Part shown: one piece after another, positions 13,419 to 56,500 of the stretch
Layout: every line of letters begins with the position of its first letter
Position numbering within the stretch: the first letter of the stretch is position 1
Virus record (IMG/VR): IMGVR_UViG_3300036944_001243
DNA length: 64,000 nt
Origin: a virus
Taxonomy: Duplodnaviria > Heunggongvirae > Uroviricota > Caudoviricetes
Reading direction: 5' to 3' (one strand)
Program-made: the position numbers and the translations under genes
Notes under the pieces: model-generated
What the model was told of the DNA's origin: nothing
Database searches by the model: none
Seen by the model: the letters and a program-made list of their open reading frames with translations, nothing else

Positions 13419-13419
13419 G

Positions 13420-13870: not shown

Positions 13871-13893
13871 TTCCCCTATTTTTTTTATTTAAA

Positions 13894-15348: not shown

Positions 15349-15391
15349 ATAGTGTATAATAAAAGCAGAGAGGTGAAAGCCCTCTCAAATT

Positions 15392-15466: not shown

Positions 15467-15963
15467 TTTTTTTTCATATTTGAATTTCTCCCAGCAAATG
15501 TGGAAGTCTGTGAATGACAATTCGGGCATAAAAAACATAGATTTTCAAATCTATTATCATTGTTGATTCCATTTTTATGCTCTAGTTGAAGAGTAAGAGG
15601 CTTTTTATTCCAAATCGGGAGTTGTCCACATTCGTAGCATTTATTCTCCCATCCCATTTCTATCAAATATTTTTTTAATTGTTTGTTGCTTGAGTAAGTC
15701 GAATCTTTGCAAAATAACAAATTATTATTAAATTTATTGATTGATTTGAGATTTTTCATACGCAAATCATAGCCTCTTTTTTTAACAGGATTTAAATCTA
15801 TTTGATCTCTTTCACATCTTTTCTTTAAAGTTCTATGATTTCCATTGTATGCATTAAGATTTAATTTTTGTAAAATTTCAACAATTGAATTAGATGAGTT
15901 GATTATTTCTAATAATTGTGTATAATCTATTGTCCATATAATACTTGTTTTTGTTCTTGGCAT
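15433..15963 (-). CDS. HNH homing endonuclease
   Basis: LEHKNGINNDNRFENLCFLCPNCH; 3' end overlaps tRNA-Gly on opposite strand. Confidence 0.75.
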   Translation of the reverse strand: MPRTKTSIIWTIDYTQLLEIINSSNSIVEILQKLNLNAYNGNHRTLKKRCERDQIDLNPVKKRGYDLRMKNLKSINKFNNNLLFCKDSTYSSNKQLKKYLIEMGWENKCYECGQLPIWNKKPLTLQLEHKNGINNDNRFENLCFLCPNCHSQTSTFAGRNSNMKKNGADSQDRTDL

Positions 15964-16013
15964 ATTAGTTATTACACCTTATATGACAAAATGAGAATAT
16001 AGTATAAATAAAT

Positions 16014-16087
16014 TGGTCCATGTTGTAGTGGGAGCAAAAATGACTTTGAATCATCGAGTGGGGGTTCGATTCCCTCTGGACCTGCCA
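16014..16087 (+). tRNA. tRNA-Gln(TTG)
   Basis: anticodon stem ATGA/TCAT loop CTTTGAA, T-arm GGGGG-TTCGATT-CCCTC, CCA+ATTT. Confidence 0.7.
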
Positions 16088-16095
16088 ATTTTTAT

Positions 16096-16169
16096 GGGAC
16101 GGTGTTGTAGTGGGAGCATCCGAAATTGTGAATTTCGCGGGAACGGATCATAACCGTTACGTCCCTCCA
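16096..16169 (+). tRNA. tRNA-His(GTG), A54 T-loop ATCATAA
   Basis: acceptor GGGACGG/ACGTCCC, anticodon stem CGAAA/TTTCG loop TTGTGAA, CCA+TTTTT. Confidence 0.65.
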
Positions 16170-16176
16170 TTTTTAA

Positions 16177-16271
16177 GGAAGGTTGTCAGAGCGGTCTAAC
16201 GTATCTCTTTGCTAAAGAGAAGATGTCGTGAATAACGGGGTCCAAGGGTTCGAATCCCTTACCTTCCTCCA
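16177..16271 (+). tRNA. tRNA-Ser(GCT), type II
   Basis: acceptor GGAAGGT/ACCTTCC, anticodon stem TCTCT/AGAGA loop TTGCTAA, long variable arm, T-arm AAGGG-TTCGAAT-CCCTT, CCA. Confidence 0.8.
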
Positions 16272-25524: not shown

Positions 25525-26295
25525 ATGCAAAAAGGTTTAAATATCAGTGGAATTTATCAAATTAAAAATAAAACGAACGGTAAATCATATATTGGAAGTT
25601 CGATAAATATTAGACTTAGATGGAAAGATCATAGAAGGAAGCTTCGCAAGGGGATTCATCATAGCAAACATTTGCAATCATCATTTGATAAATATGGTTT
25701 GGATTCATTTGAGTTTTTAATAATAGAAAAAGTTGATGATTTAAATAATTTATTAAAATCCGAACAAAAATGGATTGATTTTTATCAATCATATGATAGA
25801 TTATACGGATATAATTCTCGTAAATTCGCCAGCAGCAATTGGATGCTTTCTGTTTCTGATGAAACAAGAGAAAAATTAAAAAAATCTCATTTAGGGAAAA
25901 AAAGATCAAAAGAATGTCACAAAAAAATATTAGCCAGCATATCAAAAAAAGTTTATCAATTAGATAAAGAAACTTTAGAAAAAATTAATGAATTTTCGTC
26001 GTGTAAAGAAGGTGAAGAAAAAACAGGAATCGCGAGGCAGTTAATATCAATGGCATGTAGAGGAATTACAAAATCCGCAAAAGGTTATTGTTGGACATAT
26101 GATATTGATAATTTTAAAAAACCAGAAAAATATAATATCCTTCCAAAAGTTACCAGATTTATAATAGATCAAGATACTGGAAATGAATGGAAAACTATAA
26201 AAGAAGCAGCTGAATACTTAAATTTAACCAAAAATCAAATATACAGCTTAATTAAATGGAAAAAATTGATATATGAATATAGAAAAAACTACTAA
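25525..26295 (+). CDS. GIY-YIG homing endonuclease
   Basis: GIYQIKNKTNGKSYIGSSINIRLRWKDHRRKL GIY-YIG motif; AT-rich gene. Confidence 0.8.
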   Translation: MQKGLNISGIYQIKNKTNGKSYIGSSINIRLRWKDHRRKLRKGIHHSKHLQSSFDKYGLDSFEFLIIEKVDDLNNLLKSEQKWIDFYQSYDRLYGYNSRKFASSNWMLSVSDETREKLKKSHLGKKRSKECHKKILASISKKVYQLDKETLEKINEFSSCKEGEEKTGIARQLISMACRGITKSAKGYCWTYDIDNFKKPEKYNILPKVTRFIIDQDTGNEWKTIKEAAEYLNLTKNQIYSLIKWKKLIYEYRKNY

Positions 26296-36333: not shown

Positions 36334-37596
36334 TCTTGACAAAATCCTCAATTCAAAATAAGCTACGAACATGAATATCAATTCAACTCCTATTAATGCT
36401 GAAGAGCAAGAAAAAGCTGCCAAAAAACCAATTGAATTCTTTACTTACGTAGATACTTATAGCGGATTGGGTCTTGACATCGGTAAAAAACCCTCCCTTC
36501 AAGCAAAACATTTTAAAAATGCGCGTCTTATAGCAAAAGGACTTCACGATGAATACGATGTGATTGCAGTATGGGACGAGGAAGTTGTTTTTATCTATCT
36601 CGGATATTGGAATGATGGAATTATCGAATAAATATGACATTGCCAACCGTTCGCCTTGTGTGTCTTAGTAAAAATCCAAATTGGGTTTTTGATAAAGACC
36701 TTCCTTATGAAGATAGAATGCGTGATTATCATGTCAGGCATGAAACCGAAGCAGAAATTTTGACACTACATCTTCAAAAAAATAAAATGCGAATTCGTTA
36801 TCGCGATGCTTGCGGCAAAGTGCAAACTCAGGATATTGATGCATCCAGTTTTTTCCAAAAATACGAAATTGCCCAAAAATATTAACGGGTCCAAAGTTCA
36901 AATTTAAACTAATAAAAAAATGGAAGATATTTTCGGCAGAAAACTAGCTATTGGAGACGTTGTTGCTTGTCGCAGATCAGGCAGCAGAAGCATGATCATC
37001 GGAGAAATCACTTCATTCGGTAAAAAGCAAGTAACGGTCAGCTGCAAACACAGGAATACTGTGGATAAAGTCTACCACTATCCAAGCGACGTTTGCAAAG
37101 CAGAAGGCTCAGTGGCAAAAGAGAAGATTAAAACCCTAATTGAAAAATATCAGGGCAAAATCGAAGAATTTAAAACCAGTAAATATTGGACAGACGGCGA
37201 ATACATCCGCGCCGAAGCACGCCGCGACCTGCTGCAAGACGAAATCATTCCTGATCTTGGATGGATCTAAAAAATTCTTGACTAAAACAACAACATAGTA
37301 GAAACTACGAACATGACCAACATCCTCAAAAACTACATTCGTGACCAGCGCAACAATCCAGTCGGAGTCGTCGTGGTTGTCAAAGAAAACGGAAATTATC
37401 GTTTCGGTTATTCTCTTTGTGCGCCACAGGATCGCTTCGATAAGGAAACTGGCACCAAGATCGCAATCTATCGCGCTCAGGCCAAGGAACTTGGCATCGA
37501 CCAAGCTCTCGCGCCACTGGTTCCAGATCGCCGCGAAGTCGTGCTGAATGGCTATCTGAACCTCGAAAAGCGTGCCTCTAAGTATTTTAAGAACTG

Positions 37597-38109
37597 ATGA
37601 AACAAATCGACGGAGACATCTTCTTGGGAGAATGGAATGGCATGGTTCACTGTGCCAATCTGTATCATACCATGGGCGGCGGTATCGCACGAATCATTCA
37701 TCGCGATTATCCAGAAGCATACGAGGCAGACCGAAAAACTCAGCGTTCTGACATTTCTAAATTAGGACATTTCTCTTACGCAAAAATTGTTCGGAGTGCT
37801 GTTTCATTAACTTCTAAATGCCGTATTTTTGAGATTTTTAATCTGTATGGTCAGTTGGGAATGGGTAGCGATGGTAATTCAATGAATCGAAATGCTCGAT
37901 ACGATGCGATTCATGATGGTGTATGGAGAATTTGTGAGTTTCTGCTTGCATTGTATCCAAATGAGAAATACACTCTGGCATTCCCTTACAAGATGGCGAG
38001 TGATTTGGCTGGCGGCGATTTTAAAATTGTATCCGCAATTCTAGAAAGCGTAGAATCTCATTTTCCAAGTATTGAGTTCCATATCTATAAATTAAATAAT
38101 TCGAAATGA
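37597..38109 (+). CDS. macro-domain (ADP-ribose binding/processing) protein
   Basis: GDIFLGEWNGMVHCANLYHTMGGGIARII macro-domain core. Confidence 0.55.
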   Translation: MKQIDGDIFLGEWNGMVHCANLYHTMGGGIARIIHRDYPEAYEADRKTQRSDISKLGHFSYAKIVRSAVSLTSKCRIFEIFNLYGQLGMGSDGNSMNRNARYDAIHDGVWRICEFLLALYPNEKYTLAFPYKMASDLAGGDFKIVSAILESVESHFPSIEFHIYKLNNSK

Positions 38110-38910
38110 ATAACCTTTATAGACACTTCCTTTTTGAAGTGCTAATCCAGCATTCGAAGCATAAAGACCATTTTCTCTGCAAAATTTAGCTAAATTTTTA
38201 ATTATGACTATCTCTCCCGATGGAAAAGTAACTTCATAATTTTTAGCTCTTCTTTCATTTGCTTTTTGATTTTGAGAAAAAGTTTCGCTCATTTTTCGAC
38301 CTTTAAGTTTTTTGCTTATTTTAATTTTAGATTCTTCTGAATGTTTATGACCAAAAAACGGATTTCCTTGTCCTTGAAATTTTTCAGAACACACTTCCGC
38401 TGCTCGTTTTAATACATGCTGTGGTAATGATTTACCATACCAAAAATTATTCTGGCCTGTTCTTTTAGAAGCTGCATTAGAGATTTTCTGTTTTGTTTCT
38501 GGCGAATGAGTTTTCCCTAATGTATTACCAGCCGTATGACAGCAATTGTATTTATATTTTAATTTATCCATCCAAAATTGCTCTCTTGTAATTAAAGTTT
38601 CTAATGAGGTTTTTTCTAACAAAGAAAACTTAAATGCTTTTTCACCGTATTTATTCCAAGCTCTTTGTAAAAAGACGCAATGATGAATATTTTTTCGCAA
38701 AGATAATTTATGTTGTCTAAATCTGTTAAAAATATTAACAGATGATCCCACATAAACACATTTCGAAATACGATTAAAAATTAAATAAATTCCAGTCACA
38801 CCATATCTTACACTAAACAGGTGGATTATGGAAAATAGTATTTGACTTTGATCTGAATTTCTGCCATTCTCCAAAGTGTCGAAAGTCACTTTCCCAACAT
38901 TGAATTCCAC
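38092..38910 (-). CDS. GIY-YIG homing endonuclease
   Basis: GIYLIFNRISKCVYVGSSVNIFNRFRQHK. Confidence 0.75.
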   Translation of the reverse strand: MEFNVGKVTFDTLENGRNSDQSQILFSIIHLFSVRYGVTGIYLIFNRISKCVYVGSSVNIFNRFRQHKLSLRKNIHHCVFLQRAWNKYGEKAFKFSLLEKTSLETLITREQFWMDKLKYKYNCCHTAGNTLGKTHSPETKQKISNAASKRTGQNNFWYGKSLPQHVLKRAAEVCSEKFQGQGNPFFGHKHSEESKIKISKKLKGRKMSETFSQNQKANERRAKNYEVTFPSGEIVIIKNLAKFCRENGLYASNAGLALQKGSVYKGYSFRII

Positions 38911-40003
38911 ATTTACAAACTAAAGTAAGCTTATGAAGCTCATTAGCAAGCATCGCGATTATTACGATCACATGGTTTCTAAATACGGCTTTGATGAAAG
39001 TCGTGTGTATGATCGCCGTGGAAAAATCGTGCATGATCCCTTTGCTTACTGGAATCAGTATTTGATTTCTATTTGTGGTATTTACTACCCAATCGTTGCT
39101 CATCATAAAACACAAAAACTATTTTTTGAACCCGACGAGCAGCTTAAATATTGGGAGAATGATTTCATTCGTCGTTATCGCGGCAAGAAGTCGCCGCTGA
39201 ATGAGAAATTTCGACAGCCCGTTTTGATGGACGCATCTGATATTGATGGTAAGGTTTCTTATTCGATTCCTCTATTGGCCAATTTCAAGTTTGCTTCTAT
39301 CATCGAGCCTGATGAAATGTATCAGAATATCTACAATTTTTTGGGCTGGCTAAAGGATAATCCCGAGCCGCCAAACACACAAACAAACAAAGACAAAATC
39401 GTTACTCACGGTTTTGACACGAAACGTTCTTTCAGACCACAAATTAAAGATTAAAAAACAATGGACCTATACGAATCAAATTGTTTGGTTGTTGATTGGG
39501 ATATTCTTCGTAAAGTCTTTGGCGAAAAATATTGGAACGACCATGAAAACATCATCTGTGTTCCGACAAACAGAATTACAGAAGAAGAGTTTGACAAACT
39601 TTTAGATTTTGATCTTGAAAAGATCGCCATCAAAGAAGAACAATTTCTAATCGCAGAATTATGAAAATCAATCTGCCGAATCCAGTGATCTTGGAATGTA
39701 TGGAGCTTTCTCCTAAGTTTCGAGAGTATGCACTTGGTTTAATATCGTCTCAAGACGGCAAACAGCAAATCGAAAATGTTTTTCTCCCTCTGCTGCGTTC
39801 TGGCCAAAAAATCGAAGCGATCAAAGCCCTGCGCACATATTCAAGGAATGATGAAAATCGTTTATTTACAATTAAAAATGCTTTTCCCGTCGAATTTGCT
39901 GTTTACGAAACAAATTGTGGCAGTATAATGACCCTTGCTTCTGCCCAAAAAATTGTTGAACTTTACGCTTGATCAAATTCAGAAGATCCGCTAGCCTCTA
40001 ACT

Positions 40004-40951
40004 ATGAAACAACACCTGCATGTCCGCTGGATGCCCAAGACTGACAAGACTTTTGTTCTGAACTTAGATAATGAATTCAGCCCATTCAAGAACAGCGAAA
40101 ATCTTTTCTTTCTCAAGCTGAAGCGTCTTACCTTCTACGGTGGCGAACCGCATCTTCAAATTGATGTCGATGCCATTGGCGAAGAAAATGTCTCTGGTGA
40201 TTTGATCATCACTCAGCGATACAATACAATTCAGGACTTCATGGATATTATCTTGGCTGTGGACGCTGCCCGCCGAATTGGCTTCAAGAGTATTCAACTG
40301 ATTCTTCCTTACTTTCCTGCGGCTCGACAAGACCGTGTTTGCAACAAGGGAGAACCACTGACAGTCAAGGTTTTTGCTGACATGATTAATTCTTGTGGCT
40401 TTGATCGTGTGTTTATTCTAGCTCCGCATAGCGAAGTGACTCCTGCACTACTCAATAACGTGGTTGTTTTGGATGAACTGGAATTTGTTGAAGCTGCAAT
40501 GCCAATCGCATGCCCTAGCCATTCCGATTCTACGATCAACGTGGTTTGTCCTGATGCTGGTGCTGGAAAGCGCGTTGGTAAAATCGCACAGTATCTCGCT
40601 ACCAAATACCCACAGAATACAATCAATCTGATTCGTTGTGAAAAGGTCCGTGATGTTCGTGATGGTAGCTTGAAAGAGTTCCATGTCCAAGCGGATGATC
40701 TTGGAGGCTATCCAACAATTATTTTCGATGATATTGTTTCTCTTGGTGGAACATTCATTGGTTTGGGCGAAGTTTTAAAGCAAAAAAATTGCGGCAAGCT
40801 GATGCTGTTCACTTCTCACGCAGACTGCATCGAAGGTCTGGAAAAGATGAAAAACTATTTCGACCATGTGTTTGTCACCAATTCGCGAAAAAATTGGAGC
40901 AACTATGGATCGATGCTCGACAAAATCACTACATTCGAAATCAAACTGTAA
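40004..40951 (+). CDS. ribose-phosphate pyrophosphokinase (Prs)-family protein; possibly ADP-ribose pyrophosphokinase (Adps) of an NAD-reconstitution pathway
   Basis: PRPP-synthetase motif PYFPAARQDR; adjacent to NAMPT-like gene. Confidence 0.6.
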   Translation: MKQHLHVRWMPKTDKTFVLNLDNEFSPFKNSENLFFLKLKRLTFYGGEPHLQIDVDAIGEENVSGDLIITQRYNTIQDFMDIILAVDAARRIGFKSIQLILPYFPAARQDRVCNKGEPLTVKVFADMINSCGFDRVFILAPHSEVTPALLNNVVVLDELEFVEAAMPIACPSHSDSTINVVCPDAGAGKRVGKIAQYLATKYPQNTINLIRCEKVRDVRDGSLKEFHVQADDLGGYPTIIFDDIVSLGGTFIGLGEVLKQKNCGKLMLFTSHADCIEGLEKMKNYFDHVFVTNSRKNWSNYGSMLDKITTFEIKL

Positions 40952-41593
40952 AACAAAATGGAATACTACTACGTTGCATGCGAAGCTTGTGATGAACAAA
41001 AGGTCAATCCCGAGTTCAAACATTACTTCCGCCTTTACAAGACTGTCGGAACTACTGCGGTTCTTGTTGAGCAGGGCCTAGCCATCAAAATCAATGATTG
41101 GGAACAAAGGTTTGGCGCGGTTTTTAAAAACGAGAATCCGTATCCTGAGCTTGACTGATTTTTCCTAAAAAAGTCTTGCATTACAAGCTGATCTGGGCAT
41201 AATGGTTCCAGATCAGCTTTCTGCTAACCTTAAAACACAAAAAATGAAATCTAAAACCCCAAAATGGAAACAAAACGTCATCCGCAAAATCAGGCGACAA
41301 CTGAGAGACAGTGGTTGGTATGGATGGTGCTGTTATTTTTCTGATCAACAAGCTAAATGGGTCTTTCACTTTGGTTTTAAATATTAAAAAATATGCACAA
41401 GTTCGTAGAATTTCTTATTGATACTTGGGTTTTGTTTTTGATCAGCCTTGCGATCTTTGGCATTGGTATTTTGTCTTCGACCGTGGGTTACATTGCCGTT
41501 TCCGTCTGGAGCGAAATTTTTCACTGAAAACCCTTGACTCAAAAACCAATCCAGCTATACTGTTCTCAGGCAGAGAAAGCCTACTAAAATATC

Positions 41594-43234
41594 ATGAACA
41601 CACTTGCTCCACTACTTATCGACGGTTACAAAGTTGACCATCGCCGCCAGTATCCCGCTAATAGCGAACTGGTCTTCTCTAATCTTACTGCTCGCGGCAC
41701 TCGCGTTAAGCGTGTCAATAAGGTGATCAGTTTCGGTCTTCAATACTTCATGAAGAAGTATCTGCTCGACGCATGGGAACGCACTTTCTTTTCTCGTCCT
41801 CTGGATGAAGTTACCAAGAAGTATGGTCGCCGCCTTCTGAATTATCTTGGCGTCAATAACATTGGCGATCAGCATATTCGTGACCTGCACGCTCTTGGCT
41901 ATCTGCCTCTTGAAATTTGGGCGCTTCCTGAAGGTAGCAATGTGAACCTGCGTGTTCCAATGTTTGTGGTCTTCAATACTGATGCTCGTTTCTTCTGGCT
42001 GACTAACGCTATTGAGACTATTCTGTCTTGTTCCACTTGGGGCTGTAGCACTAGCGCAACCACCGCTCTTATCTATCGTAAGATTTTCAATGAGTGGGCT
42101 GAAAAGACTAATCCTGAAATGATTGGATTTGTTCCATTCCAAGGACATGATTTCTCGTTCCGTGGTATGATGGGTCTTGAAGCTGCTACCATGAGTGGTG
42201 CTGCTCACCTTCTTAGCTTCGTCGGCACCGATACTCTTCCTGCGATTGATTTCCTTGAGGAGTATTACAATGCAGATAGCGACAAGGAAATGGTTGGCGT
42301 TTCAGTCGCGGCTACGGAACACAGCGTTATGTCTTTGGGTGGTATGAAGGATGAAGTTGAAACCTTCCGTCGTCTCATTGAAGACATTTACCCTGATAAC
42401 ATTGTTTCGATTGTCTCTGATACTTGGGACTTCTGGAATGTTGTCAATCCTGATGGTGGTATCTGCGCTCGTCTCAAGAGCAAGATCATGGCTCGCAATG
42501 GTAAGGTTGTGATTCGTCCTGACTCTGGTGATCCAGTTAAGATTGTGACTGGCTATACATTTAAAGAAGTTGAGAATATTTCTTGGCCACCAACATTTAC
42601 TGATGAATGCGAACGACTTATTTGTAAAGGTGAGGTGTATGAGTATGATGTAAAGCAATCCAATGAACGCCAAGGTCCAGTTTGGGTGCCATCCAAGACT
42701 ACGATTCTTGAAGTCAAAGGTATGATTCAGTGTCTTTGGGAAATCTTCGGTGGCACCATTACCAGCACAGGTTACAAGCAACTTGATAGTCATATCGGTG
42801 CAATCTACGGTGATTCTATCACTATCGGTCGTGCTGAAGAAATTTGCGAACGTCTCGCTGCTAAGGGATTTGCTTCGACCAACCTTGTGTATGGTATCGG
42901 AAGCTTCACCTATCAGGGTGCTATCACTATGGATGCCATCGTTACCCGTGACACTCACGGTTTCGCTGTCAAGAGCACCTATGGAGAAGTTACCGTTGAT
43001 GGCAAGACAAAGGGTGTTGAAATCTTCAAAGACCCTAAGACTGATGACGGACTCAAGAAGAGCGCCAAGGGTCTGATTGCTGTCTACGAAAAGGATGGTG
43101 AGTTTGTCATGAAGGATCAAGCTACTTGGGAAGAAGTTAAGAATTGCGCCTTTGAACAGGTGTTCAAGGATGGCGTGATTACCAAGGAACAGACCCTGAG
43201 TGGTATTCGCGAACTGGTCGCCAAGAACTTCTAA
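41594..43234 (+). CDS. nicotinamide phosphoribosyltransferase (NAMPT/NadV)-family protein; possibly Namat
   Basis: 546 aa, N-terminal LLIDGYKVDHRRQYP and overall length typical of NAMPT family. Confidence 0.65.
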   Translation: MNTLAPLLIDGYKVDHRRQYPANSELVFSNLTARGTRVKRVNKVISFGLQYFMKKYLLDAWERTFFSRPLDEVTKKYGRRLLNYLGVNNIGDQHIRDLHALGYLPLEIWALPEGSNVNLRVPMFVVFNTDARFFWLTNAIETILSCSTWGCSTSATTALIYRKIFNEWAEKTNPEMIGFVPFQGHDFSFRGMMGLEAATMSGAAHLLSFVGTDTLPAIDFLEEYYNADSDKEMVGVSVAATEHSVMSLGGMKDEVETFRRLIEDIYPDNIVSIVSDTWDFWNVVNPDGGICARLKSKIMARNGKVVIRPDSGDPVKIVTGYTFKEVENISWPPTFTDECERLICKGEVYEYDVKQSNERQGPVWVPSKTTILEVKGMIQCLWEIFGGTITSTGYKQLDSHIGAIYGDSITIGRAEEICERLAAKGFASTNLVYGIGSFTYQGAITMDAIVTRDTHGFAVKSTYGEVTVDGKTKGVEIFKDPKTDDGLKKSAKGLIAVYEKDGEFVMKDQATWEEVKNCAFEQVFKDGVITKEQTLSGIRELVAKNF

Positions 43235-43894
43235 TATGCAAAAATTCACAGTCATATGGGAATATGTGCATCCCGCAGTAAATACGTGCATTCAAACTCA
43301 AAAAACATTTGTTCTTGCAAAAACATTAGAATCTGCTAAAACTGTAGCAACTCCTCCAAGCGTAGTTCGCTTTGTTTATGAAGGACATTTGAAGCCTGTG
43401 TTTGATTGTTACAATGACGATACTGTAATCACAATCCCATAAGCTATTCAAGGTCGTCCTCTCGGACCTATACGAGAGATTACATTTCAGCCTCTGCAAT
43501 GAGGGCATCATAGCTCGCAACGAGTGCGATGAGCGACCTGATCAGGGGTTGAAATGTAGTAACTCTTAACACAATGCTTATGGAAGAAACAATTACAATC
43601 ACACGAAAAGAATATAACCAACTTCTGGAGGATTCTAATAAGCTCCGTTGTTTGGAGAATAACGGAGTAGATAATTGGACATGGTATGGTGAAGCTATGA
43701 AAGAGTTTTACGCAGAACAAGAAGAATAATCAATCAATGAACTGGACAATCAAAAACATCGGCTATCGCTGCCGCTACTATTGGAAAGCAGCATGGAATT
43801 TCTTAGGTTTTTGCCCCAAATGCTGGACCTCTGTAAACTACACAGCTTCAGGCCGAGCAATTTGTCCAAAATGCGGTAAATAAAACCAATTAAA

Positions 43895-44401
43895 ATGAAA
43901 CCAATCGAAATCAAAGCACCAAATCCATTGAGCTACGATGGACCCCTAAAAACAAAAGTATTTCTTGCTGGCAGCATCGAAATGGGCGCGGCTAAAAAGT
44001 GGCAAGAGGACATTGTGGACAAGTTGGGCCTACATGTGCTGGCTTACAATGAGGTTTCGGAATCTCTTGAGCCTGACGTTGTTTTCCTGAATCCTCGCCG
44101 CGAAGACTGGGACAGCACTTGGGACCAAGAATCAGATCAGTTCAACGAACAAGTCTTGTGGGAGTTGAATATGCTCTATCGGGCCGATGTTATTGTCGTG
44201 TATTTTGATCCCAACACTAAATCGCCCATCTCACTGCTAGAACTGGGTCTATTTGCAAGCAGCAAAAAACTAATTGTTTGTTGCCCCGATGGATTCTGGC
44301 GCAAAGGAAACGTGCGAATTGTTTGTGAGCTTTATAATATCCCACTTTTCAACGATTACGATCAGTGGGTGGCAACAATCCAAGAAAAACTCGAAAAATG
44401 A
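43895..44401 (+). CDS. nucleoside 2-deoxyribosyltransferase-like protein (paralog of first ORF)
   Basis: KVFLAGSIEMG...VYFDPNTKSPISLLELGLFASSKKLIVCCPDGFWRKGN. Confidence 0.45.
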   Translation: MKPIEIKAPNPLSYDGPLKTKVFLAGSIEMGAAKKWQEDIVDKLGLHVLAYNEVSESLEPDVVFLNPRREDWDSTWDQESDQFNEQVLWELNMLYRADVIVVYFDPNTKSPISLLELGLFASSKKLIVCCPDGFWRKGNVRIVCELYNIPLFNDYDQWVATIQEKLEK

Positions 44402-47114
44402 TCGTCAAAAGCATTTCAATCGAAGAACTGAAAAAAGACTACTCCACACGCAATGGCTTTGTTTTCTTTGCCGTTGCTGATTGTGACAGCAAAACGTGCG
44501 AAGAAGCCGCAATTGGCATTAAAAAAAGGGATTTTACCACCGAAATGCCAGAATTTGTCGGCCAGATAAACGCAAGAGCATTTGCTTTCGTTTATGCTGA
44601 AGGGGTTTCATTTGATTGCCCGAATTTCCTTGACTTTTGCAGTCATTGGAGTATGATGACTGGAGCTTTCCGAGTGGACGCTCTCGCCGCTTGGCTAAAA
44701 GAACAATCATAAACAATATTACAAATGAAAAATAAAAGCCTGATTGACCTCAAACTCGCTAAGAAACTATACGATGAATTTGCCAAGGTTTGGAATCCTG
44801 ATGAGCAATTGAGCCTCACAGTAAATGTCCTTGGACATGATGTTGAATACATTTTTGATCTGTATCATCCTTTTAATGCTGATGGTGATTGGTCTTGTGG
44901 TAATTTTATTTATTTGGAATTCTCCGAATACAAAGCTTCAAAAGAAGCTAATAAATTTTTCGATAGTTTGTTCGACTATTCATTTGATATTGCAGGTGGC
45001 GGAGCGGTTCATACCGCTCAACTGAAACTCGAAAAGAATTTAAAGGGCTTGTATAAAGCCGAAGAAAAAATCAATAAGCACCTCCAAGACATTAAAATTT
45101 CTCAAAAGGCATTTTGTGCGTGTTTCAAAACCCTTTCGAAAAACACTCTACTTCCTTGGGTTACTGTTAGTGCTGCTCTTAGTAATTTGAGTGCTGCTCC
45201 GAAGCCAATCGAAGTGAAGCTTAATGGTTCATACACTGCTGAGATTGTTCCTAATAACACGACCATTCAAGTCGGATGCCTGAGTATTCCTATTGCCAAA
45301 ATTCGTGAAGTTCTCGCAACTTACGATAAAATCTCAAACAATTAATGAACGCGCTAATTAATATCCTCGCTTGGGTTTCGTTTCTCGTCACGGGTTTTTA
45401 TTTTTCAATCGTGCTTTTTACGATTGGTCTTTGCATGGCTAGTAAAGTAAAGGTGACGATCCGAATCAGACCGATTTTTCTTTTTACTTTGGCTCTTTTT
45501 GTATGGCCAATCGTGTATTTTTTCTCAATTTAAAATCAAAAATTCCTGAAAAAAAAGTTTGACAAAACCCCAAACATTATCTAAAGTAACAACATGAAAA
45601 CGACTGCATCAAAAAAGAACGACCTGCTGAATCCAACTCCAGCACAAATCAAGTATCGCAACCGTAAGTGGGCCGAGGCTCTTCTTGCGAATAAGAAGAA
45701 AAAGCGCAACAAAATGTATGGCAATGGCGGACGTTGTTGTTTGGCTGTGGCACAAGATGTTGCTTGTGAACTTGGAATTGGTAATTACAGGGGCCATGAT
45801 GAGCATCAGCCTCATTGTAATGTTGGCTTGTTCTTCGGATGGGATCGTGAAACTAATCCTTCTCTTGATGTCGCTACGAAAGACAAGCAATGGCGAAAGC
45901 TTGACGCTGTTAGTTTGAACGACGGTATTAGTCTTAGCGATAACAAGAAGCATCAGTTCCACGGACTTAGCCATGCACAAATCGCAGAGTGTGTTTTGAA
46001 CACTTACGTTCATCCTAAGAACAAGAAGCAAACGTTTAAGTTCTAAATTATAACAAAAAAAAAATAACAAAAATATGAATATCGGAGATAAGGTAGTATG
46101 TAATAAGGCGGCAGGTTCAACTTTCCTTCGCACTTGGAAGAAATATGAATTGGTTAGCGAGAATCAACATGGTAATTGGCAAGTTAAGGAAGTTGATACT
46201 GGTTTGCTTTCTACGCATTGGTATAAGGCTGATCGTTTTGAAGTGATCGAAACCGCCAAGAAGCCTGCTGTTGCCAAGCATATCGGAACTATGAACAGCA
46301 CACCAACCAAATTGAATTTGGAAGCTCGATACAAGACTCGATCAGGTCTTTTGGTTAAGCTTTACACCAATGAAGGTGCGGACCCAAAGAGTCCTGTTGT
46401 CGGATCTTATCGTAGGGAAACTGGAGATTGGGTTAATTGCGCATGGCAGGCAGACGGAAAGTATCCATTTGGCAATACATTTGATCTTGTCGAACTGCCC
46501 TACAGCATTGAAATTCCAATCGAAGACAAAGGAAAAGCAATTGTCTATAATGATGGTTCTGTTTATTTGGAACAGTGCGGGAGTCAAGTCACTCTCAACG
46601 AACAAAACCTTCGTGACATTTACGCCGCTCTTTTGCGTATAGTTTGATATTGAATCTGCAATCCTGAGCATGACGTTAAAGGGCTCGCTTTTTTAACATT
46701 TTAAAATCAAAAACATGAAATTTATCACAGCAATTCTCGCCGCCTCCTGCCTCCTTCTTTCTAGCTGCACTGATGCAGAACGCGCCAAGATAGGCGGGTT
46801 TGGCGACAGGTTCAAGGTTGAAATGTATTCTGGTGGAGTTAAGGTGCGCGAGTGGACTTCCTCTGGCAAGGTGCATTCAGAAGCTCAGTCTGATGGTTAC
46901 TACTTCAATGATCAGCAAACTGGTTCATTGGTAGAGGTCAGCGGAGATGTTGTTATCACTCCTCTTGACTGAGGTAATCAGCATGTTGCTAAAGCTTACA
47001 ATCACTGTTGTCATCATTGCGCTCGTTGCGCTCTTCATTTGGGCTAGTGATGACTTCGATGACCAAGACATACCGTAAAAACTAGGTAGAGCCCCGAAGA
47101 AAAGAAAAAAAATC

Positions 47115-47663
47115 ATGCAAGAAGAATGGCGCGATATTGTGGGATATGAGGGATTGTATCAGGTTTCTAATTTGGGGCAAATAAGGAATAGTAAAAAAGG
47201 GAAATTTTTAACTCTTTACGTAAGCGAGGGAAACGCAAATCACAAAGCTTACCGAACGACATTAAGTAATAAAAAAGCTCGAAAGTTTTTTGTTCACCGA
47301 TTAGTGGCGCAAGCATTTATTCTGAATCCTGATAATAAACCAGAGGTCGATCATATTGATCGAGACTCTTTGAATAATCATGTTTCTAATTTGCGGTGGG
47401 TCACTCCAAACGAGAACCAAATCAATACAGAAAAATTCAAAACAAAAGATTTTTCATCTACGTATAAGGGCGTTTCAAGGAGTAGAAATAAGTGGAGAGC
47501 CGTATTAGCATCAGCCACTTTTAAACACCTCGGGACTTATAATTGTCATCATGCCGCAGCCCGAAAATACAATCATCGTGTTTTAGAAGTCTTTGGCGAA
47601 TATGCCTACCTAAATAATGTAGCAAACTGTGATTGTGAGGAATGTAATGCCCTAAAAGCATGA
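47115..47663 (+). CDS. HNH homing endonuclease (NUMOD4 + HNH_3 type)
   Basis: WRDIVGYEGLYQVSNLGQIR (NUMOD4) and VDHIDRDSLNNHVSNLRWVTPNEN. Confidence 0.75.
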   Translation: MQEEWRDIVGYEGLYQVSNLGQIRNSKKGKFLTLYVSEGNANHKAYRTTLSNKKARKFFVHRLVAQAFILNPDNKPEVDHIDRDSLNNHVSNLRWVTPNENQINTEKFKTKDFSSTYKGVSRSRNKWRAVLASATFKHLGTYNCHHAAARKYNHRVLEVFGEYAYLNNVANCDCEECNALKA

Positions 47664-51937: not shown

Positions 51938-52276
51938 TCAAAAGGGGCAATCGTTTTCGTCTGTTTCGTAATGTTGCGCGATAGCTCCAGCCCAAGTTTT
52001 TGTTTTTGGCGATTTGAGGCGGGCCTGATTCTCCAGCCACTCTTCATGGGTGCTGTCGTCCTCTGGGTGCTGCTGCTCTGGCCCGTTGTAGTATGGGTTG
52101 CGCTCCCAAGTGTCCCAACTGGAAAGAATCCATTGGCTGTTTAGGTTTTCCATGCCGAAGATCTGGCGTTGCTCTTCGATTGCTTCGCGGATGATGTGTT
52201 GGCGGGCGTCCATTTTATTGAGGGTTGATTGCGTAGACCATGCGGCCTTTGATAAACACTCTGTCGGCGGTGTCAA
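51938..52276 (-). CDS. hypothetical protein
   Basis: 112-aa ORF in minus-strand cluster. Confidence 0.35.
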   Translation of the reverse strand: MTPPTECLSKAAWSTQSTLNKMDARQHIIREAIEEQRQIFGMENLNSQWILSSWDTWERNPYYNGPEQQHPEDDSTHEEWLENQARLKSPKTKTWAGAIAQHYETDENDCPF

Positions 52277-52627
52277 CGTATTTTTCGCCGTTGTAGAATT
52301 TTTCCAGCTTGTAGGGATTGTAGGTGATCAGATCGAACCACTGGCCTTGTGTTGTTTGGTCCTCTGACACCGTGCCGCAGATGTAGGCATGCACGTTTTT
52401 TCTTTTGTTTTTAATTACACGCTGGCGTCCACGTTCGGACACTTTGAAAGTGACATCGATCAAAGAAATCTCTTGACAGTGGCGCACAACTTTCCACACG
52501 CCGTTGACCTTGGCTTGAACGGAAAGGAGTTTCTTTTGAAGGTTGAAGTAGACACGGACTTTCATGGCAGGGAAAAGCTACTTTGTTTCGATGGTTCTGT
52601 CAATGTTTTTTTGTGTATTTTTTTTTC

Positions 52628-52710
52628 TTTGTAAGTCGCTGGTTTTCAAGGACTTACGACGGCGCAGCGGCCCCGCCTTCGTAACTCGTTGATAGTCAAC
52701 AAGTTACAGG
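52628..52710. repeat. triple-hairpin cassette copy 2
   Basis: GTAAGTC-N13-GACTTAC, GC-rich hairpin, GTAACTC-N13-AAGTTAC. Confidence 0.6.
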
Positions 52711-52966
52711 GGCGATTTATTCTGCTAAAACCTGCTCAATTTGCTTGACAACCTCGCCCAGTTCGCTAGCCCCGAAGGGCAGAGCCTCCCCCACAACTCC
52801 ATGAGATATGGGAAAGGCCCGCAATGACATAACTTTAGAGTTGTCGTGTTCGGCAAGGACGAGGAAGTCGCCTTCCTCGGTCGCCAGTAGTGTTCGGAAA
52901 AGATTCATCTGCGACAAGCTAACATAAGCAGCATAAAAAGCAAGCACAAAGTAATTTTAGGGTCCA

Positions 52967-53689
52967 TCAGATTGCACCCCCATTCTCGGGCTCAAGCACG
53001 AAGCCTGTCAAATCTTTTTTGGCGCGGCCCTTTTCCACAAGGCCGACAACTTTTCCCTTGCCATCGAGAAAGCGGGCATCGGTTTCGTCACCGTTCACAA
53101 CATCAGCACCAAAGGCGCGGGCGGGGAGACTCTTTCTGAAAACCACTGCGACATTTCCACCAGAGCGCAAGACACTTTCCACAAGCTCGTTTGGCGTGTT
53201 CTCTTTACGGGAGAAAGTCAAATGGTAATTTGCGGGTAGTTCGCCAGCGAGGAAAGCCGACATGCGCCCGATGGTCGCGGTGTAGTCGTAAAACTGGACA
53301 CTTGGAAACATCTCGAAAATGTTCTTGCCATCATGGCGGATTTTCTCCCATGGGAGATCACTTGTGAGATTCAAGCGGAAAGCCGCTTGCATGCCATTTT
53401 TTTGTGCTTTTTTAACGGCTGCAACAATCTCCTTGACAAGCTGGGCCATAAAGGCCGACTTGTCGGAAAAGAACAAGCGAGTCTTTGCGATTCGCGCATT
53501 TTGAACCGTCGAGTAAACGCCCATTCCTGCGGTGTTGAGACATGCCGCCGCGCATCCTGCGGACGCATCCTTGCAAGTGTTAAAGCCCGACAAGGTGGAC
53601 GGAGCGAGATGGATTCCGAAAGTGGAAAAGCCAAGTTTTTCGCCCTTGCGGATTTTGGTGTTGGAAGTGGTGAGAAGTTTCACGGCCAC
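52967..53689 (-). CDS. hypothetical protein, possibly Gp37/Gp68-family (DUF5131)-like
   Basis: 240 aa; N-terminal ...GFSTFGIHLAPS...CKDASAGCAAAC; weak recollection only. Confidence 0.3.
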   Translation of the reverse strand: MAVKLLTTSNTKIRKGEKLGFSTFGIHLAPSTLSGFNTCKDASAGCAAACLNTAGMGVYSTVQNARIAKTRLFFSDKSAFMAQLVKEIVAAVKKAQKNGMQAAFRLNLTSDLPWEKIRHDGKNIFEMFPSVQFYDYTATIGRMSAFLAGELPANYHLTFSRKENTPNELVESVLRSGGNVAVVFRKSLPARAFGADVVNGDETDARFLDGKGKVVGLVEKGRAKKDLTGFVLEPENGGAI

Positions 53690-53796
53690 AAGATAGCAAG
53701 CGAGCCAGCCCTTGCAAGTCTTTTCTTGCGCATTTTCCGAAAAAAAGTTTCTCGAAAAAAACTTGACAAGAAAAAAAAAGAAAAAAAACTTGACAG

Positions 53797-53876
53797 CGTA
53801 ACTCGTTGATTTTCAAGGACTTACAACGGCGCGGGGGCCGCGCCCGCATAACTCTTTGATTTTCAGTGAGTTACAC
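53797..53876. repeat. triple-hairpin cassette copy 3
   Basis: GTAACTC-N12-GACTTAC, GGCGCGGGGGCCGCGCC, ATAACTC-N12-GAGTTAC; preceded by tandem AAAACTTGACA repeats. Confidence 0.7.
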
Positions 53877-53942
53877 AGCGAATTTTTTTGCTTGACAACG
53901 CCAGAATCCCGCCCCGCTTTCGCGGGGCAGGATCGTAGGTGT

Positions 53943-54737
53943 TCAGCCGACCACGACCACAGGGTCCAGATCGTCAGTGCCAGCATCGGCAGGGTCGATG
54001 TCAACAACAATCTGCGGACGATGGCCCGCCATGCGGTCGAACACGCTCTGCGCTGTCATCGTGCGGAATGGCAGCTTGGACAAGTCGCCGCCCTTGAGGT
54101 TTTCCGTGATCGAGTTGTAGAGTGTCCAGAGCGTGCCGCCCTTGAACTCGTCGTGTCGAGGGTTGCGGAACTCCTGCACGGCGGAATAGATGTCGCGGGC
54201 AGGGAATGCCTTGGCGTCCACAAGATCAATCAGCAAATCCGCCGCACGGTCACGGCTGATTTCGGTTTCCTTGTAAAGCTCGATCCGCTTGCCCATGTCG
54301 TTCCAATGAGAAACAACGCGGGCCACAGCATCCGACAGCACGCGGGGAAGATCCGACATGATGTTGGTAGTATGGCGGCGAGCCAACTTAATGTCAGAAG
54401 AGAAGCAAAGATTCTCGCAAACCAACATTCGGTTGCCCACGCAGATCGAAGCAGCGAAACTCTTGTCGTGCGCGTTGCGCAGGCCAAGGACGATTTCGCG
54501 ATCCGCGCCCGTAATGTCAAGGCCCTTGAGGGCGAAGCCGCCGAAGTAACGCTGGCCACCACGGGCGAGGGAATGCTCTTCAAGACCGACCTCAAGACCA
54601 GCGCGGCCAATGGCTTCGCGAGTCATTTCGACAAGGCCGAAGTGAGGGATCGGGGTGAAGGAATCGGTGCGTTCTGGAGTCTGAACACCCATGAGTTGTT
54701 CAGCGTTCACTTTGTTCTTTGCAATGATGAGGGCCAT
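53943..54737 (-). CDS. hypothetical protein (264 aa)
   Basis: globular composition; flanked by repeat cassettes; overlapping plus ORF 53856..54923 judged shadow. Confidence 0.4.
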   Translation of the reverse strand: MALIIAKNKVNAEQLMGVQTPERTDSFTPIPHFGLVEMTREAIGRAGLEVGLEEHSLARGGQRYFGGFALKGLDITGADREIVLGLRNAHDKSFAASICVGNRMLVCENLCFSSDIKLARRHTTNIMSDLPRVLSDAVARVVSHWNDMGKRIELYKETEISRDRAADLLIDLVDAKAFPARDIYSAVQEFRNPRHDEFKGGTLWTLYNSITENLKGGDLSKLPFRTMTAQSVFDRMAGHRPQIVVDIDPADAGTDDLDPVVVVG

Positions 54738-54882
54738 GATGTTGTGGGATTGGGAGTTGGAGTTGGAGCGCCGTCAGTGGCGACGGGGAAAAGATACCAA
54801 AGATTCGGGGCGAGTCAACACGTTTTTGATTGTTTCCGTGCTTTTATGTCAGAAAAAAGATTGCGCATATTTTGCTTTCCTC

Positions 54883-54901
54883 TTGACAACAACCTGTCAA
54901 G
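54883..54901. promoter_or_regulatory. palindromic CTTGACA-N5-TGTCAAG element (TTGACA on both strands)
   Basis: perfect 7-bp inverted repeat 15 nt upstream of cassette 4. Confidence 0.45.
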
Positions 54902-54917
54902 AACTTTTTTTCACCAT

Positions 54918-54997
54918 ACGTAACTCGTTCATTATCAACGAGTTACAACGGCGCGGGGGCCGCGCCTGCGTAAGTCCTTGATAGTCAGTCACTTACG
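54918..54997. repeat. triple-hairpin cassette copy 4
   Basis: canonical GGCGCGGGGGCCGCGCC core with flanking inverted repeats. Confidence 0.7.
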
Positions 54998-55069
54998 AGG
55001 CTGGTTTTTATTGATTTTTTTTCTTGACAAACGAAGAGCCCCGCCCCCTTTCGGGGGCGAGGCCGAGGA

Positions 55070-55498
55070 TCAGTGGGCAACCTCCTTGACGAGCTTACCG
55101 CAGCGGAAGGTCACGACCGCATCCTTGTGAGCAGATGCCCAAGTTTCGGTATTGCGGTTGACGAAGGGGACGTATCCAGAGGCGCGGACGGTATCAACGC
55201 CGCCCTTCAGGAGCCGCTGATATTTGTCCTTGCCATTGATGACGCGGGTGGTTCCGTCCTTCTTGACAAAGGTGATGGAAAAGAACTTTCCCTTGGTTTC
55301 TGCGATCAGGTTGTCGAGTTCGGTTTGCATGGTCGGGGTCATTGGTTTGGTTTCTGCTTGTTTGTTTTTGTCTAGTTTGGAAAGGCGGTATTCGGTGATG
55401 AGCGTGTGGATTGCCAAGCCGATCACGCCGAGAGTGATGGCGATGATCGAGCCGAAGAAGAAGAAGGCGAAGATGTTGGCGACTGTGGATTCTTGCAT
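55070..55498 (-). CDS. membrane-anchored hypothetical protein
   Basis: N-terminal TM helix IFAFFFFGSIIAITLGVIGLAI. Confidence 0.4.
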   Translation of the reverse strand: MQESTVANIFAFFFFGSIIAITLGVIGLAIHTLITEYRLSKLDKNKQAETKPMTPTMQTELDNLIAETKGKFFSITFVKKDGTTRVINGKDKYQRLLKGGVDTVRASGYVPFVNRNTETWASAHKDAVVTFRCGKLVKEVAH

Positions 55499-55841
55499 TT
55501 GGTTTGGTTGGTTGGTGTTGCGGTTACGGGTGAGAGCTTAGGCGGCTTTGCGATTGTTGGCAAGGACTTTTTTCATCTTTTTCAGAATGTCCGACGCTTC
55601 CTTGCGGTCCAGAAGTGCCGAAGCGGTTTCGGTGCCGATGTAAAACGAAAAAATGCTTTTGCATGCTTTACGGTTCGGTCCTTTGATGTTCAACAGCGAA
55701 GTTTTCGCGATGTAGTAGGCGTTGCCGTTCTTGGTGCGGGAGATCTCGTTCACGGGGAAAGATTACCAACGGCGGGCGGGCATTGCAAGAACTCTTTTGC
55801 ATTTTCTGCGAAAAAAAAGACTGCGCATTTTTTGCTTTGTG

Positions 55842-55861
55842 CTTGACAGGCTCATGTCAAG
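55842..55861. promoter_or_regulatory. palindromic CTTGACA-N6-TGTCAAG element
   Basis: same architecture upstream of cassette 5; preceded by conserved GCGCATTTTTTGCTTTGTG. Confidence 0.45.
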
Positions 55862-55876
55862 AACTTTTTTCATGCT

Positions 55877-55958
55877 GTGTAAGTCGTTGATTATTAACGA
55901 GTTACGACGACGCGGGGGCCGCGCCCGTGTAAGTCCTTGGTTTTCAATGGGTTAGGCA
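55877..55958. repeat. triple-hairpin cassette copy 5
   Basis: as above. Confidence 0.7.
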
Positions 55959-55999
55959 AGGGGGCCACCACAACCCCCTTGCCATTTTCACCCACCATG

Positions 56000-56500
56000 T
56001 CAACCAGAAACTTTTAGAAAATCAATGAAATCTTCCGCCAGATAGCAGATGATTTGCTCAAGGAAAAAATACTCGCCTTCTGTCGCGAAACAGCTTGAGT
56101 TTTGGATTGCCTCCCAAGGGAAGACTTTCTTTCGATTGGCAAGGTTTTCTTCGTCGTTTTCCTCTTCGGCAAGTAGTGCGAGGCAAAGAGTTTCGGCGTC
56201 CCATTCTTGAGGCCAGTTAGACAAGAAATGACTGGCGGCTTTTAGATACGCTTTCGCATGGATAGGATTACGCAGATCAAGACCATTACTAAAATCTTCA
56301 TTCACTTTGATGATTGCGGGAGGTTCGGGCAGTTGCTTTTTTGTTTCAACATATGCATCGGCGGCTTTGGCCATGCGTGTCAATTCGATGAGAGCTTCTC
56401 CCCTTACAGAAGCATTTTTATTTTGACAAGCCGAAAGAAGCAAGTCGAGAACGTCTTCCCATTTGGGGGTCATGTCAATGATGTTTTGTGCGGCAGGCAT
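56000..56500 (-). CDS. hypothetical protein (166 aa)
   Basis: ORF track. Confidence 0.4.
   Translation of the reverse strand: MPAAQNIIDMTPKWEDVLDLLLSACQNKNASVRGEALIELTRMAKAADAYVETKKQLPEPPAIIKVNEDFSNGLDLRNPIHAKAYLKAASHFLSNWPQEWDAETLCLALLAEEENDEENLANRKKVFPWEAIQNSSCFATEGEYFFLEQIICYLAEDFIDFLKVSG

Follow-up and report, generated by a model that had tools for sequence, protein, structure and literature searches.

We find that a 64,000-nucleotide stretch of DNA from a large, uncultured T4-like phage (IMG/VR record IMGVR_UViG_3300036944_001243; hereafter the window) very probably carries, at positions 37597-43234, a module of the NARP1 type for the reconstitution of nicotinamide adenine dinucleotide (NAD+), for which NARP1-AP-like is the better name. 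NARP1 is a recently found route by which phages defeat bacterial defences that destroy NAD+; it consists of two enzymes, Adps and Namat, and has been described in Bacillus phage SpβL1, FADO, E. coli phage Bas63 and Vibrio phage ICP1, where the pair is called NrsAB (bioRxiv 10.1101/2024.02.11.579819; PMC12774641; PMC13586617). The window encodes, on one strand, a macro-domain protein, a Prs-fold protein and a NAMPT-fold protein. The original prediction for this locus had preferred NARP1 to the classical combination of Prs and NadV, and our results support that preference, since the two proteins did not cluster with housekeeping Prs and canonical NadV, and no gene for a nicotinamide mononucleotide adenylyltransferase (NMNAT) appeared in the window.

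The pathway that we propose would begin with the host. NADase defences with SIR2, TIR or SEFIR effectors (Thoeris, DSR1/2, SIR2-HerA and similar systems) would break NAD+ down into ADP-ribose (ADPR) plus nicotinamide. The enzyme encoded at 40004-40951 would then use ATP to pyrophosphorylate the 1''-OH of ADPR, yielding pyrophosphorylated ADPR (ADPR-PP) and AMP, and the enzyme encoded at 41594-43234 would combine ADPR-PP with nicotinamide to give NAD+ and pyrophosphate, bypassing both a nicotinamide mononucleotide (NMN) intermediate and an NMNAT. The macro-domain protein would most likely convert ADPR-1''-phosphate, released by RES-type (aRES) NADases, to ADP-ribose, as in NARP1-AP, and would in this way widen the input of the pathway.

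The Adps-like and Namat-like proteins

The open reading frame (ORF) at 40004-40951 (plus strand, 315 aa) matches Pribosyltran_N in Pfam (48 bits) and bears the Prs signature LILPYFPAARQDRVCN (PYFPAARQDR) that had been read from it. Pairwise BLASTP did not discriminate between its possible relatives (ICP1 Adps, 137 bits; SpβL1 Adps, 93; E. coli Prs, 83; FADO Adps, 70-81), and we therefore used scores against curated models, motif mapping and a tree. Among the curated models of housekeeping Prs, only the broad TIGR01251 was passed, by a margin of 2 bits (115.2 bits, cut-off 113), where the verified Adps of SpβL1, FADO and ICP1 scored 96-106 and E. coli Prs scored 423. Against PRK01259 (cut-off 297) the protein reached 92 bits, compared with 64-80 for the same verified Adps and 533 for E. 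coli Prs. Judged by these scores, the Prs-like protein is as distant from housekeeping Prs as the verified Adps are.

The neighbour-joining (NJ) tree contained 30 sequences over 284 columns, namely the window protein, 11 metagenomic relatives, the four studied Adps (for Vibrio phage Gary, the sequence given in the supplementary data of 10.64898/2026.01.28.702374) and, from seven bacterial classes, 14 Prs or Prs-like proteins. A search from E. coli Prs by itself yielded just gammaproteobacterial Prs with identities of at least 80%, and the diverse Prs were drawn from chromosomes and megaplasmids mis-filed within a plasmid collection. All 500 bootstraps recovered the split between the 14 Prs or Prs-like proteins and a group made of the window clade and the SpβL1, FADO, ICP1 and Gary Adps, in a tree built by NJ only and with modest sampling of Prs. 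Phylogeny, which the original prediction had proposed as a check, thus sets the protein apart from housekeeping Prs.

A second check that had been proposed, for ADPR-binding substitutions, was made by mapping residues onto the structures of ICP1 Adps (PMC13586617), and the ADPR-binding and donor-site residues that these define are largely present. The catalytic lysine on the β-hairpin, K214, corresponds to K185 of ICP1, K162 of SpβL1 and K192 of Gary, and the acceptor residues R108, H142, D184, D242 and D243 correspond to R87, H121, D161, D212 and D213 of ICP1. The catalytic hairpin, EKVRDVRDGSL, has the Adps-specific extra residue in the pattern K-x-R-D-V-x-x-G-x-L. Within the PP loop, DDIVSLGGTF, the segment VSLGGTF is close to SSFGGTF of SpβL1 and FADO, and unlike CDGAASF of ICP1 or IDTGGTL of Prs. 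F251 is equivalent to the lid residue F221 of ICP1, and F44 to its adenine contact F18. The protein ends about 20 residues past VFVTNS, as do all four Adps, and the α11-α12 regulatory module of Prs, which mediates filamentation and allostery (PMC13586617), is absent; the corresponding C-terminal segment of E. coli Prs is about 25 residues long. These features of the sequence lead us to predict that the protein is of the Adps type, that is, a putative ADP-ribose pyrophosphokinase.

The ORF at 41594-43234 encodes a full-length member of the NAMPT/NadV family, as had been claimed (matches to NAMPT_N and NAPRTase; PRK09198, 520 bits, cut-off 405). With verified Namats it shares 50-53% of its residues, with KVP40 Nampt and Ralstonia NadV 28-33%. 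In the PDB, sequence comparison ranked SpβL1 Namat in complex with nicotinamide or NAD+ first (9w5x/9w5w, 501 bits), ahead of H. ducreyi NadV (385 bits) and the Xcc and human Nampt (~190 bits). The AlphaFold2 model (mean confidence, pLDDT, 84), from which the fold is predicted, also had 9w5x as its top Foldseek match (TM-score 0.82/0.92). One further structure, 9ke8, was first suspected to be a phage Nampt and proved to be the H. ducreyi NadV. By NJ, the window clade groups with the SpβL1, FADO and ICP1 Namats and with a B. thuringiensis plasmid pair; 99% of bootstraps place it as sister to ICP1 Namat, and 100% of 300 split it from KVP40 Nampt, Ralstonia NadV and the Arthrobacter and Rhodococcus homologues. 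This protein, too, stands apart from KVP40 Nampt and Ralstonia NadV on the phylogenetic check.

The catalytic core is kept, with D10, Y12, F187, R190, D213, H243, R308 and D310 (SpβL1 D13, Y15, F189, R192, D215, the catalytic His, R306 and D308) invariant or nearly so in 59 relatives. In Namat, selectivity for ADPR-PP is ascribed to a clamp formed by the SCL loop and by the SCH helix with the motif GSXΦXΦXΦTRD (PMC12774641). Three of the four clamp residues, R37, F438 and D453, are kept, and the fourth, Y396 of SpβL1, is replaced by I449. The SCL loop (TARGTR-VKRV) has the length of its SpβL1 counterpart (TPRTSR-VEDI), exceeds those of KVP40 and Ralstonia by 3-4 residues, and carries R37 at the position of R40. 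The SCH segment reads GSFTYQ-GAITMDA-IVTRD compared with GSFTYQ-YN-TRD, keeping F438 (SpβL1 F392), T451, R452 and D453. From its sequence we predict that the protein is of the Namat type with a non-canonical clamp, and hence a putative nicotinamide ADP-ribose transferase; we file it as a Namat variant because the strict form of the helix motif is absent.

A second insertion of ~50 aa (aa 322-371, after RPDSGDPVKIVTGY) forms a confidently modelled small β/α subdomain in the AlphaFold2 model, and its length is hypervariable in the clade (25-100 aa). We considered it as a novelty and rejected this, since Ackermannviridae, for example SKML-39, have a counterpart at the same site. In a 199,986-bp relative (L007) the Namat-like protein (10001-11905, 634 aa) has ~89 extra residues after aa 249, beside the catalytic His region, which could be an intein-like or domain insertion.

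Pairing of the two genes and the macro-domain protein

The two genes had been described as adjacent and co-oriented. They are co-oriented, but adjacent only in the sense of being near, since they are set apart by a 66-aa ORF (40958-41158) and a 436-nt gap. This spacer contains promoter-like and terminator-like matches, and the two genes may therefore not form one transcription unit here. We compared six related contigs, five of which have the pair (L007, L008, L009, L107 and L108). Each of the five has the two genes on one strand, the Adps-like gene being upstream, and no gene between them in L009, one in L108, two in L107, four in L008 and eight in L007 (one or two small ORFs in the window). 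The distance used by Osterman et al., a Namat homologue no more than ten genes from Adps (bioRxiv 10.1101/2024.02.11.579819), is thus observed in the window and in the five relatives alike. Moreover, the longest contigs have equal lengths in 16 pairings of a homologue of one protein with a homologue of the other. The pairing of the two genes is more than chance.

The original prediction also placed a macro-domain gene upstream, and this is confirmed by a profile search and by AlphaFold2/Foldseek for the ORF at 37597-38109 (plus strand), 1.9 kb away. The Pfam Macro match was below threshold (14.6 bits, E 0.033) and phmmer was likewise not significant, so that we turned to a profile of homologues and a predicted structure. 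The profile, built from 57 homologues, matched the macro domains of BT1257, DarG, TARG1 and Poa1p in the PDB with E values of 1e-16 to 1e-10, and the AlphaFold2 model (pLDDT 93) had Poa1p (6lfq) as its top Foldseek match, with a TM-score of 0.70. The ORF also matches PHROG 335, annotated as 'phosphatase' (E 3e-31). On its predicted fold it is a genuine Poa1p-type macro domain.

NARP1-linked macro-domain phosphatases of ADPR-1''-phosphate (Adpp) have been described (bioRxiv 10.64898/2026.01.28.702374); in the literature, a macro gene is present in 15% of NARP1 operons. With hhalign, the window protein aligned over its full length with the Adpp of Vibrio phage Gary, which has been verified biochemically (99.9% probability, E 3e-31). 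His18 falls on Gary His24, which was mutated in the same study (10.64898/2026.01.28.702374). The motifs H-x-A-N, TMG-x-GIA, YPEAYEAD, NLYGQ and LAGGD are common to the window protein and to many of the NARP1-associated macro proteins listed in its Table S1. We also considered whether a 176-aa ORF 5' of the Adps-like gene in L007 encodes a divergent macro domain, and an hhalign probability of 2.6% led us to reject this. At 3576-4154, 3 kb 5' of its macro gene, L107 carries a gene for a NADAR domain (PF08719), which has links to NAD and ADP-ribose; the window has none.

Alternatives to a NARP1-AP-like module

Several observations weigh against the assignment. Our analysis establishes the gene content, linkage and gene order, the clade placement of the three proteins, the conservation of the catalytic and most of the specificity residues, and the predicted folds of the macro-domain and Namat-like proteins, whereas every enzymatic step, the substrate preferences and the anti-defence phenotype are inferred from homology to the studied systems. 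In the Adps-like protein, the adenine contact Phe92 of ICP1 is Cys113; SpβL1 and FADO have Glu there, so that the residue is not diagnostic. In the Namat-like protein, the strict GSXΦXΦXΦTRD is broken by seven residues, GAITMDA (aa 442-448), inserted after position 6, the position-7 aromatic is Ile449, and confidence in the model of the inserted loop is low (pLDDT ~50). Membership of the Namat branch alone is no proof of ADPR-PP use, because H. ducreyi NadV, which was crystallised with NMN, lies within this branch or next to it; since clade membership is insufficient, the argument for ADPR-PP is carried by the retained clamp residues and the Adps partner. The search for an NMNAT was confined to the 64 kb of the window, and the genome measures at least 140 kb. 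As for the macro gene, it lies five genes upstream of the Adps-like gene, counting a homing endonuclease. It is retained in L109, which has no Adps-Namat block, and no macro gene was found within 10 kb of the pair in L007 or L009. Its family occurs in 2,089 phage records, compared with 1,262 for Adps homologues.

Classical salvage would assign the making of phosphoribosyl pyrophosphate (PRPP) to the Prs-like protein, that of NMN to the NAMPT-like protein, and the completion of NAD+ to host NadR/NadD or to an unseen phage NMNAT, giving a NARP2-like route with its own supply of PRPP. Both proteins pass the generic Prs and NadV thresholds, Namats retain PRPP-dependent NMN synthesis in vitro (PMC12774641; bioRxiv 10.1101/2024.02.11.579819), the NMN-forming H. 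ducreyi NadV is a close neighbour in the tree, the second stacking aromatic of the clamp is lost, and an NMNAT was sought in only part of the genome. We nevertheless consider this route highly improbable. The Prs-like protein is as remote from housekeeping Prs as are verified Adps, of which that of SpβL1 produces no PRPP (bioRxiv 10.1101/2024.02.11.579819), its hairpin is remodelled, its PP loop resembles that of SpβL1 and FADO, and it has no regulatory C terminus. The NAMPT-like protein is far closer in identity to Namats than to KVP40 Nampt or Ralstonia NadV, and it keeps Ser437, Phe438 and Arg37, unlike H. ducreyi NadV (GAQTYQRN). Further, an Nmnat is present in 94% of phages with a KVP40-type Nampt, and the two pathways were not found together in any phage. 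The absence of an NMNAT from the window, which had been noted earlier, was borne out by precomputed Pfam annotation and by our own Pfam scans of ORFs of at least about 105 aa outside the stretches already annotated: no CTP_transf_like (NMNAT), NUDIX, PnuC or NadR domain was found in the 64 kb. The same results led us to reject NARP3 (PnuC with a NadR-like kinase/adenylyltransferase; PMC13464706), neither domain of which is among the Pfam results for the window, and the RyDEP accessory, whose RyR domain is likewise not among them. NARP2 (KVP40-type Nampt with Nmnat) was rejected for the 31% identity to KVP40 NadV, the different clade and the lack of CTP_transf_like and NUDIX domains in the window.

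A different explanation keeps the chemistry and alters the donor, with the remodelled clamp and the subdomain adapting the enzyme to another or broader donor or protecting it from host interference. The seven-residue insertion lies exactly at the adenine contact of SpβL1 Namat (PMC12774641) and is found in 116 of 119 motif-bearing relatives. G442, A443, A448 and I449 are nearly invariant in the 59-relative alignment, which indicates selection, and the insertion is absent from the six other Namat-type proteins compared (SpβL1, FADO, ICP1, B. thuringiensis plasmid p3, SKML-39 and KKP_3916). We regard this explanation as highly improbable, because the partner keeps the Adps acceptor residues, so that ADPR-PP is still the obvious intermediate. 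A single substitution of Y396 lowers the activity of SpβL1 Namat only about 1.3- to 1.7-fold (PMC12774641). The Namat of SKML-39, whose gene abuts an Adps gene, already has Met at this position, and three close relatives of the same clade have the canonical motif. On these last three grounds we argue that the Namat-like protein of the NARP1-AP-like module has probably retained its activity. A wider form of the idea, to which we give a small chance, is that the clade with its rebuilt adenine clamp and hypervariable pocket-side subdomain accepts different or broader pyrophosphorylated ADP-ribose donors or has escaped an anti-Namat host counter-measure. If so, derivatives arising from cleavage of NADP+ or from non-canonical NADases would be candidate donors, and the clade would be a functionally distinct NARP1 subtype.

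The inclusion of the macro gene in the module, which the original prediction had assumed, is upheld by its homology to Adpp and qualified by its distance of five genes and by its inheritance independently of the Adps-Namat block. It may instead be a gene of the conserved backbone next to ThyX and UvdE, serving, for instance, de-ADP-ribosylation of protein or nucleic acid, or clearance of ADPR-1''-phosphate from RNA repair; we think this the less likely explanation, though a substantial one. In L109 (7001-7790), UvdE, the macro gene and the homologue of ORF115 (window ORF 44365-44712) are directly joined, and everything that corresponds to 38933-44401 of the window is absent, namely the three small ORFs and the Adps, Namat, gp5.9-like and deoxyribosyltransferase-like genes. 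It follows that the Adps-Namat block acts like a cassette, from which the neighbouring macro gene can be separated. The presence of the pair in L007 and L009 and the larger number of phage records for the macro family point the same way, and the structural relatives of the protein include the de-ADP-ribosylases TARG1 and DarG. NARP1-AP is defined by an Adpp gene within two genes; the macro gene of the window lies beyond this distance, as against those of L008 (abutting, with an overlap of a few bases with the Adps-like gene) and L107 (two genes upstream). On the other side stand the full-length homology to a verified Adpp with its mutated His conserved, the frequency of macro-type genes in NARP1 operons, and the position of the gene: of the five contigs with a macro gene, four (the window, L008, L107 and L108, the last also at five genes) have it 0-5 genes from the Adps-like gene. 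From ThyX to ORF115, L108 is collinear with the window except that it has no homing endonuclease, and its macro gene directly abuts the homologue of ORF 38933-39454. The endonuclease gene at 38092-38910 is therefore a secondary, selfish insertion that splits the macro gene from the block and is no part of the pathway. The distribution of the macro gene fits an accessory role, yet leaves real room for an independent function, and we consider that the protein probably takes part in the NAD-rebuilding module.

Surroundings of the locus and comparison with known systems

Features of the locus and of the window (positions in the window)
Feature	Position	Strand	Remarks
tRNA island	1353-16271		15 kb; 31 tRNA genes covering most amino acids, and tmRNA
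tmRNA	12866-13257		Rfam RF00023, 61 bits
Macro-domain protein, candidate Adpp-like	37597-38109	+	170 aa; Poa1p/TARG1 class
Homing endonuclease	38092-38910	-	Pfam GIY-YIG and NUMOD3
Three small ORFs	38933-39454, 39461-39664, 39661-39972	+	173, 67 and 103 aa; between macro and Adps-like genes
Sigma-70-like promoter match	39902-39929	+	TTTACG-16-TATAAT; 10/12 positions; 75 nt 5' of Adps-like start codon
Adps-like Prs-fold enzyme	40004-40951	+	315 aa
Small ORF	40958-41158	+	66 aa; directly 3' of Adps-like gene
Terminator-like hairpin	41497-41513		
Sigma-70-like promoter match	41534-41561	+	TTGACT-16-TATACT; 33 nt 5' of Namat-like start codon
Namat-like NAMPT-fold enzyme	41594-43234	+	546 aa
T7 gp5.9 RecBCD inhibitor homologue	43574-43729	+	51 aa; Pfam PF25708, 71.8 bits, E 4e-20
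Nucleoside 2-deoxyribosyltransferase-like protein	43895-44401	+	168 aa; Pfam PF15891, 119 bits

The promoter matches are matches to the consensus only, of which the region has 27 where 18 are expected. The three small ORFs have no Pfam match and belong to PHROG 4243, for which no function is annotated; they are conserved in the same order in L108 (48-63% identity), and the 103-aa ORF is also found in L007. The 66-aa ORF matched neither Pfam nor PHROG and is 77% identical to an ORF at the same position in L007. The gp5.9-like gene begins 340 nt 3' of the Namat-like gene; judged by homology it is a neighbouring anti-defence gene, mechanistically unrelated to the Adps-Namat pathway, and with it beside the module the stretch looks like a small anti-defence island. 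The deoxyribosyltransferase-like gene lies 1-4 genes 3' of the Namat-like gene in L007, L008 and L108, and given this linkage a role of its product in NAD or ADPR metabolism is conceivable; its sole relative in the PDB is the uncharacterised 4mcj. A second, weaker member of the same superfamily lies at the start of the window (11-457, plus strand).

Other phage genes found by Pfam in the window include rIIA/rIIB-like genes, three YopX genes, PhoH, lysozyme and numerous homing endonucleases. The lineage has no close cultured representative: megablast of 37000-45000 against 50,697 phage records gave no match, and the nearest phage protein is 50% identical. It is plentiful in metagenomes, with more than 100 protein clusters at 90% identity and contigs of up to about 200 kb, and the exact NAMPT-like protein is recorded in JGI and Logan metagenome assemblies, where its contig reaches 140,550 bp. 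Genes of the homing-endonuclease type (GIY-YIG, HNH, DUF559) are unusually dense, as at 454-1020 (+), 3006-3428 (-), 4454-5059 (+), 25525-26295 (+), 38092-38910 (-) and 47115-47663 (+), and the tRNA genes of the island are interspersed with HNH and DUF559 endonuclease genes. Within the same island, a 484-aa ORF (13894-15348, plus strand) has a TROVE (Ro60-like) domain. GC content rises to 0.50-0.53 at 52000-56000, compared with about 0.40 in the rest of the window, and this segment has minus-strand ORFs of the GP88 family and like gp82 of mycobacteriophage L5. For the ORF at 53856-54923 a look-up gave no entry.

If the assignment holds, the reach of NARP1 extends to an uncultured T4-like phage lineage that is abundant in metagenomes. 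The published Namat signature would not be universal, and an insertion at an adenine-contacting position offers a natural test of the selectivity clamp. The independent gain and loss, in close relatives, of the Adpp-like macro gene and of the Adps-Namat block is relevant to the question of whether such modules include the phosphatase as an integral partner or an opportunistic one. Annotation would otherwise name the three proteins wrongly, as ribose-phosphate pyrophosphokinase, nicotinate phosphoribosyltransferase and hypothetical protein.

Like NARP1, the window has a phage Prs-fold gene 5' of a NAMPT-fold gene on the same strand, with both proteins in the Adps and Namat clades, and shares with it the catalytic Lys, the acceptor residues, a PP loop like that of SpβL1 and FADO, the lost Prs C terminus, the Namat core, the long SCL with its Arg and the SCH Phe. 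It differs in that BLASTP identity to the verified enzymes is just 26-32% for Adps and 45-47% for Namat, and the Adps-like protein is extended by ~25-35 aa at its N terminus. The SCH insertion, the lack of an equivalent of Tyr396 and the additional ~50-aa insertion set the Namat-like protein apart, and the tight operon of NARP1 is replaced by two genes parted by a small ORF and a spacer with promoter- and terminator-like sites. With NARP1-AP of Vibrio phage Gary (Adps-Adpp-Namat; 10.64898/2026.01.28.702374) it has in common a Poa1p-type macro protein near the pair with the mutated His conserved. However, the Gary macro gene lies between adps and namat, that of the window lies upstream past a homing endonuclease and three ORFs, and its presence among the relatives of the window is independent of the block. 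NARP2 of Vibrio phage KVP40 (NadV with the bifunctional Nmnat NatV) likewise restores NAD+ by means of a phage NAMPT-family enzyme, and KVP40, too, is a large T4-like phage that has a tRNA island. In contrast, the window enzyme is 31% identical to the KVP40 NadV and is split from it in 100% of bootstraps, has the long SCL and an SCH that begins GSF where KVP40 has GGG, and is accompanied by a Prs-fold partner with no Nmnat in the window.

The NadV of H. ducreyi (pNAD1; PDB 9ke8/9keo) lies in or beside the same NAMPT branch and also has a long SCL; it is 45% identical to the window protein and 57% identical to SpβL1 Namat. Unlike the window protein it has no Adps partner on pNAD1, and it was crystallised with NMN. 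Its SCH, GAQTYQRNTRD, has no Ser or Phe at positions 2-3 and has Arg at position 7, so that the Ser, Phe and Tyr are all lost. The small element that carries the gene (L106, 3828-5315) also has phage capsid and replication genes. Taken together, its placement in the tree, this setting and the lost clamp aromatics suggest that H. ducreyi NadV was derived from a phage Namat. The Arthrobacter plasmid pLDW-10 (L103, 1-6961) has a cluster of ribokinase, Prs-like and Nampt-like genes with several genes between; its Prs-like and Nampt-like enzymes fall outside the Adps and Namat clades, and the cluster is a classical salvage arrangement that contrasts with the module of the window. Against these systems, what is known in the window is the two-enzyme pathway for rebuilding NAD+, and what is new is a sequence variant of it unlike the six reference enzymes compared.

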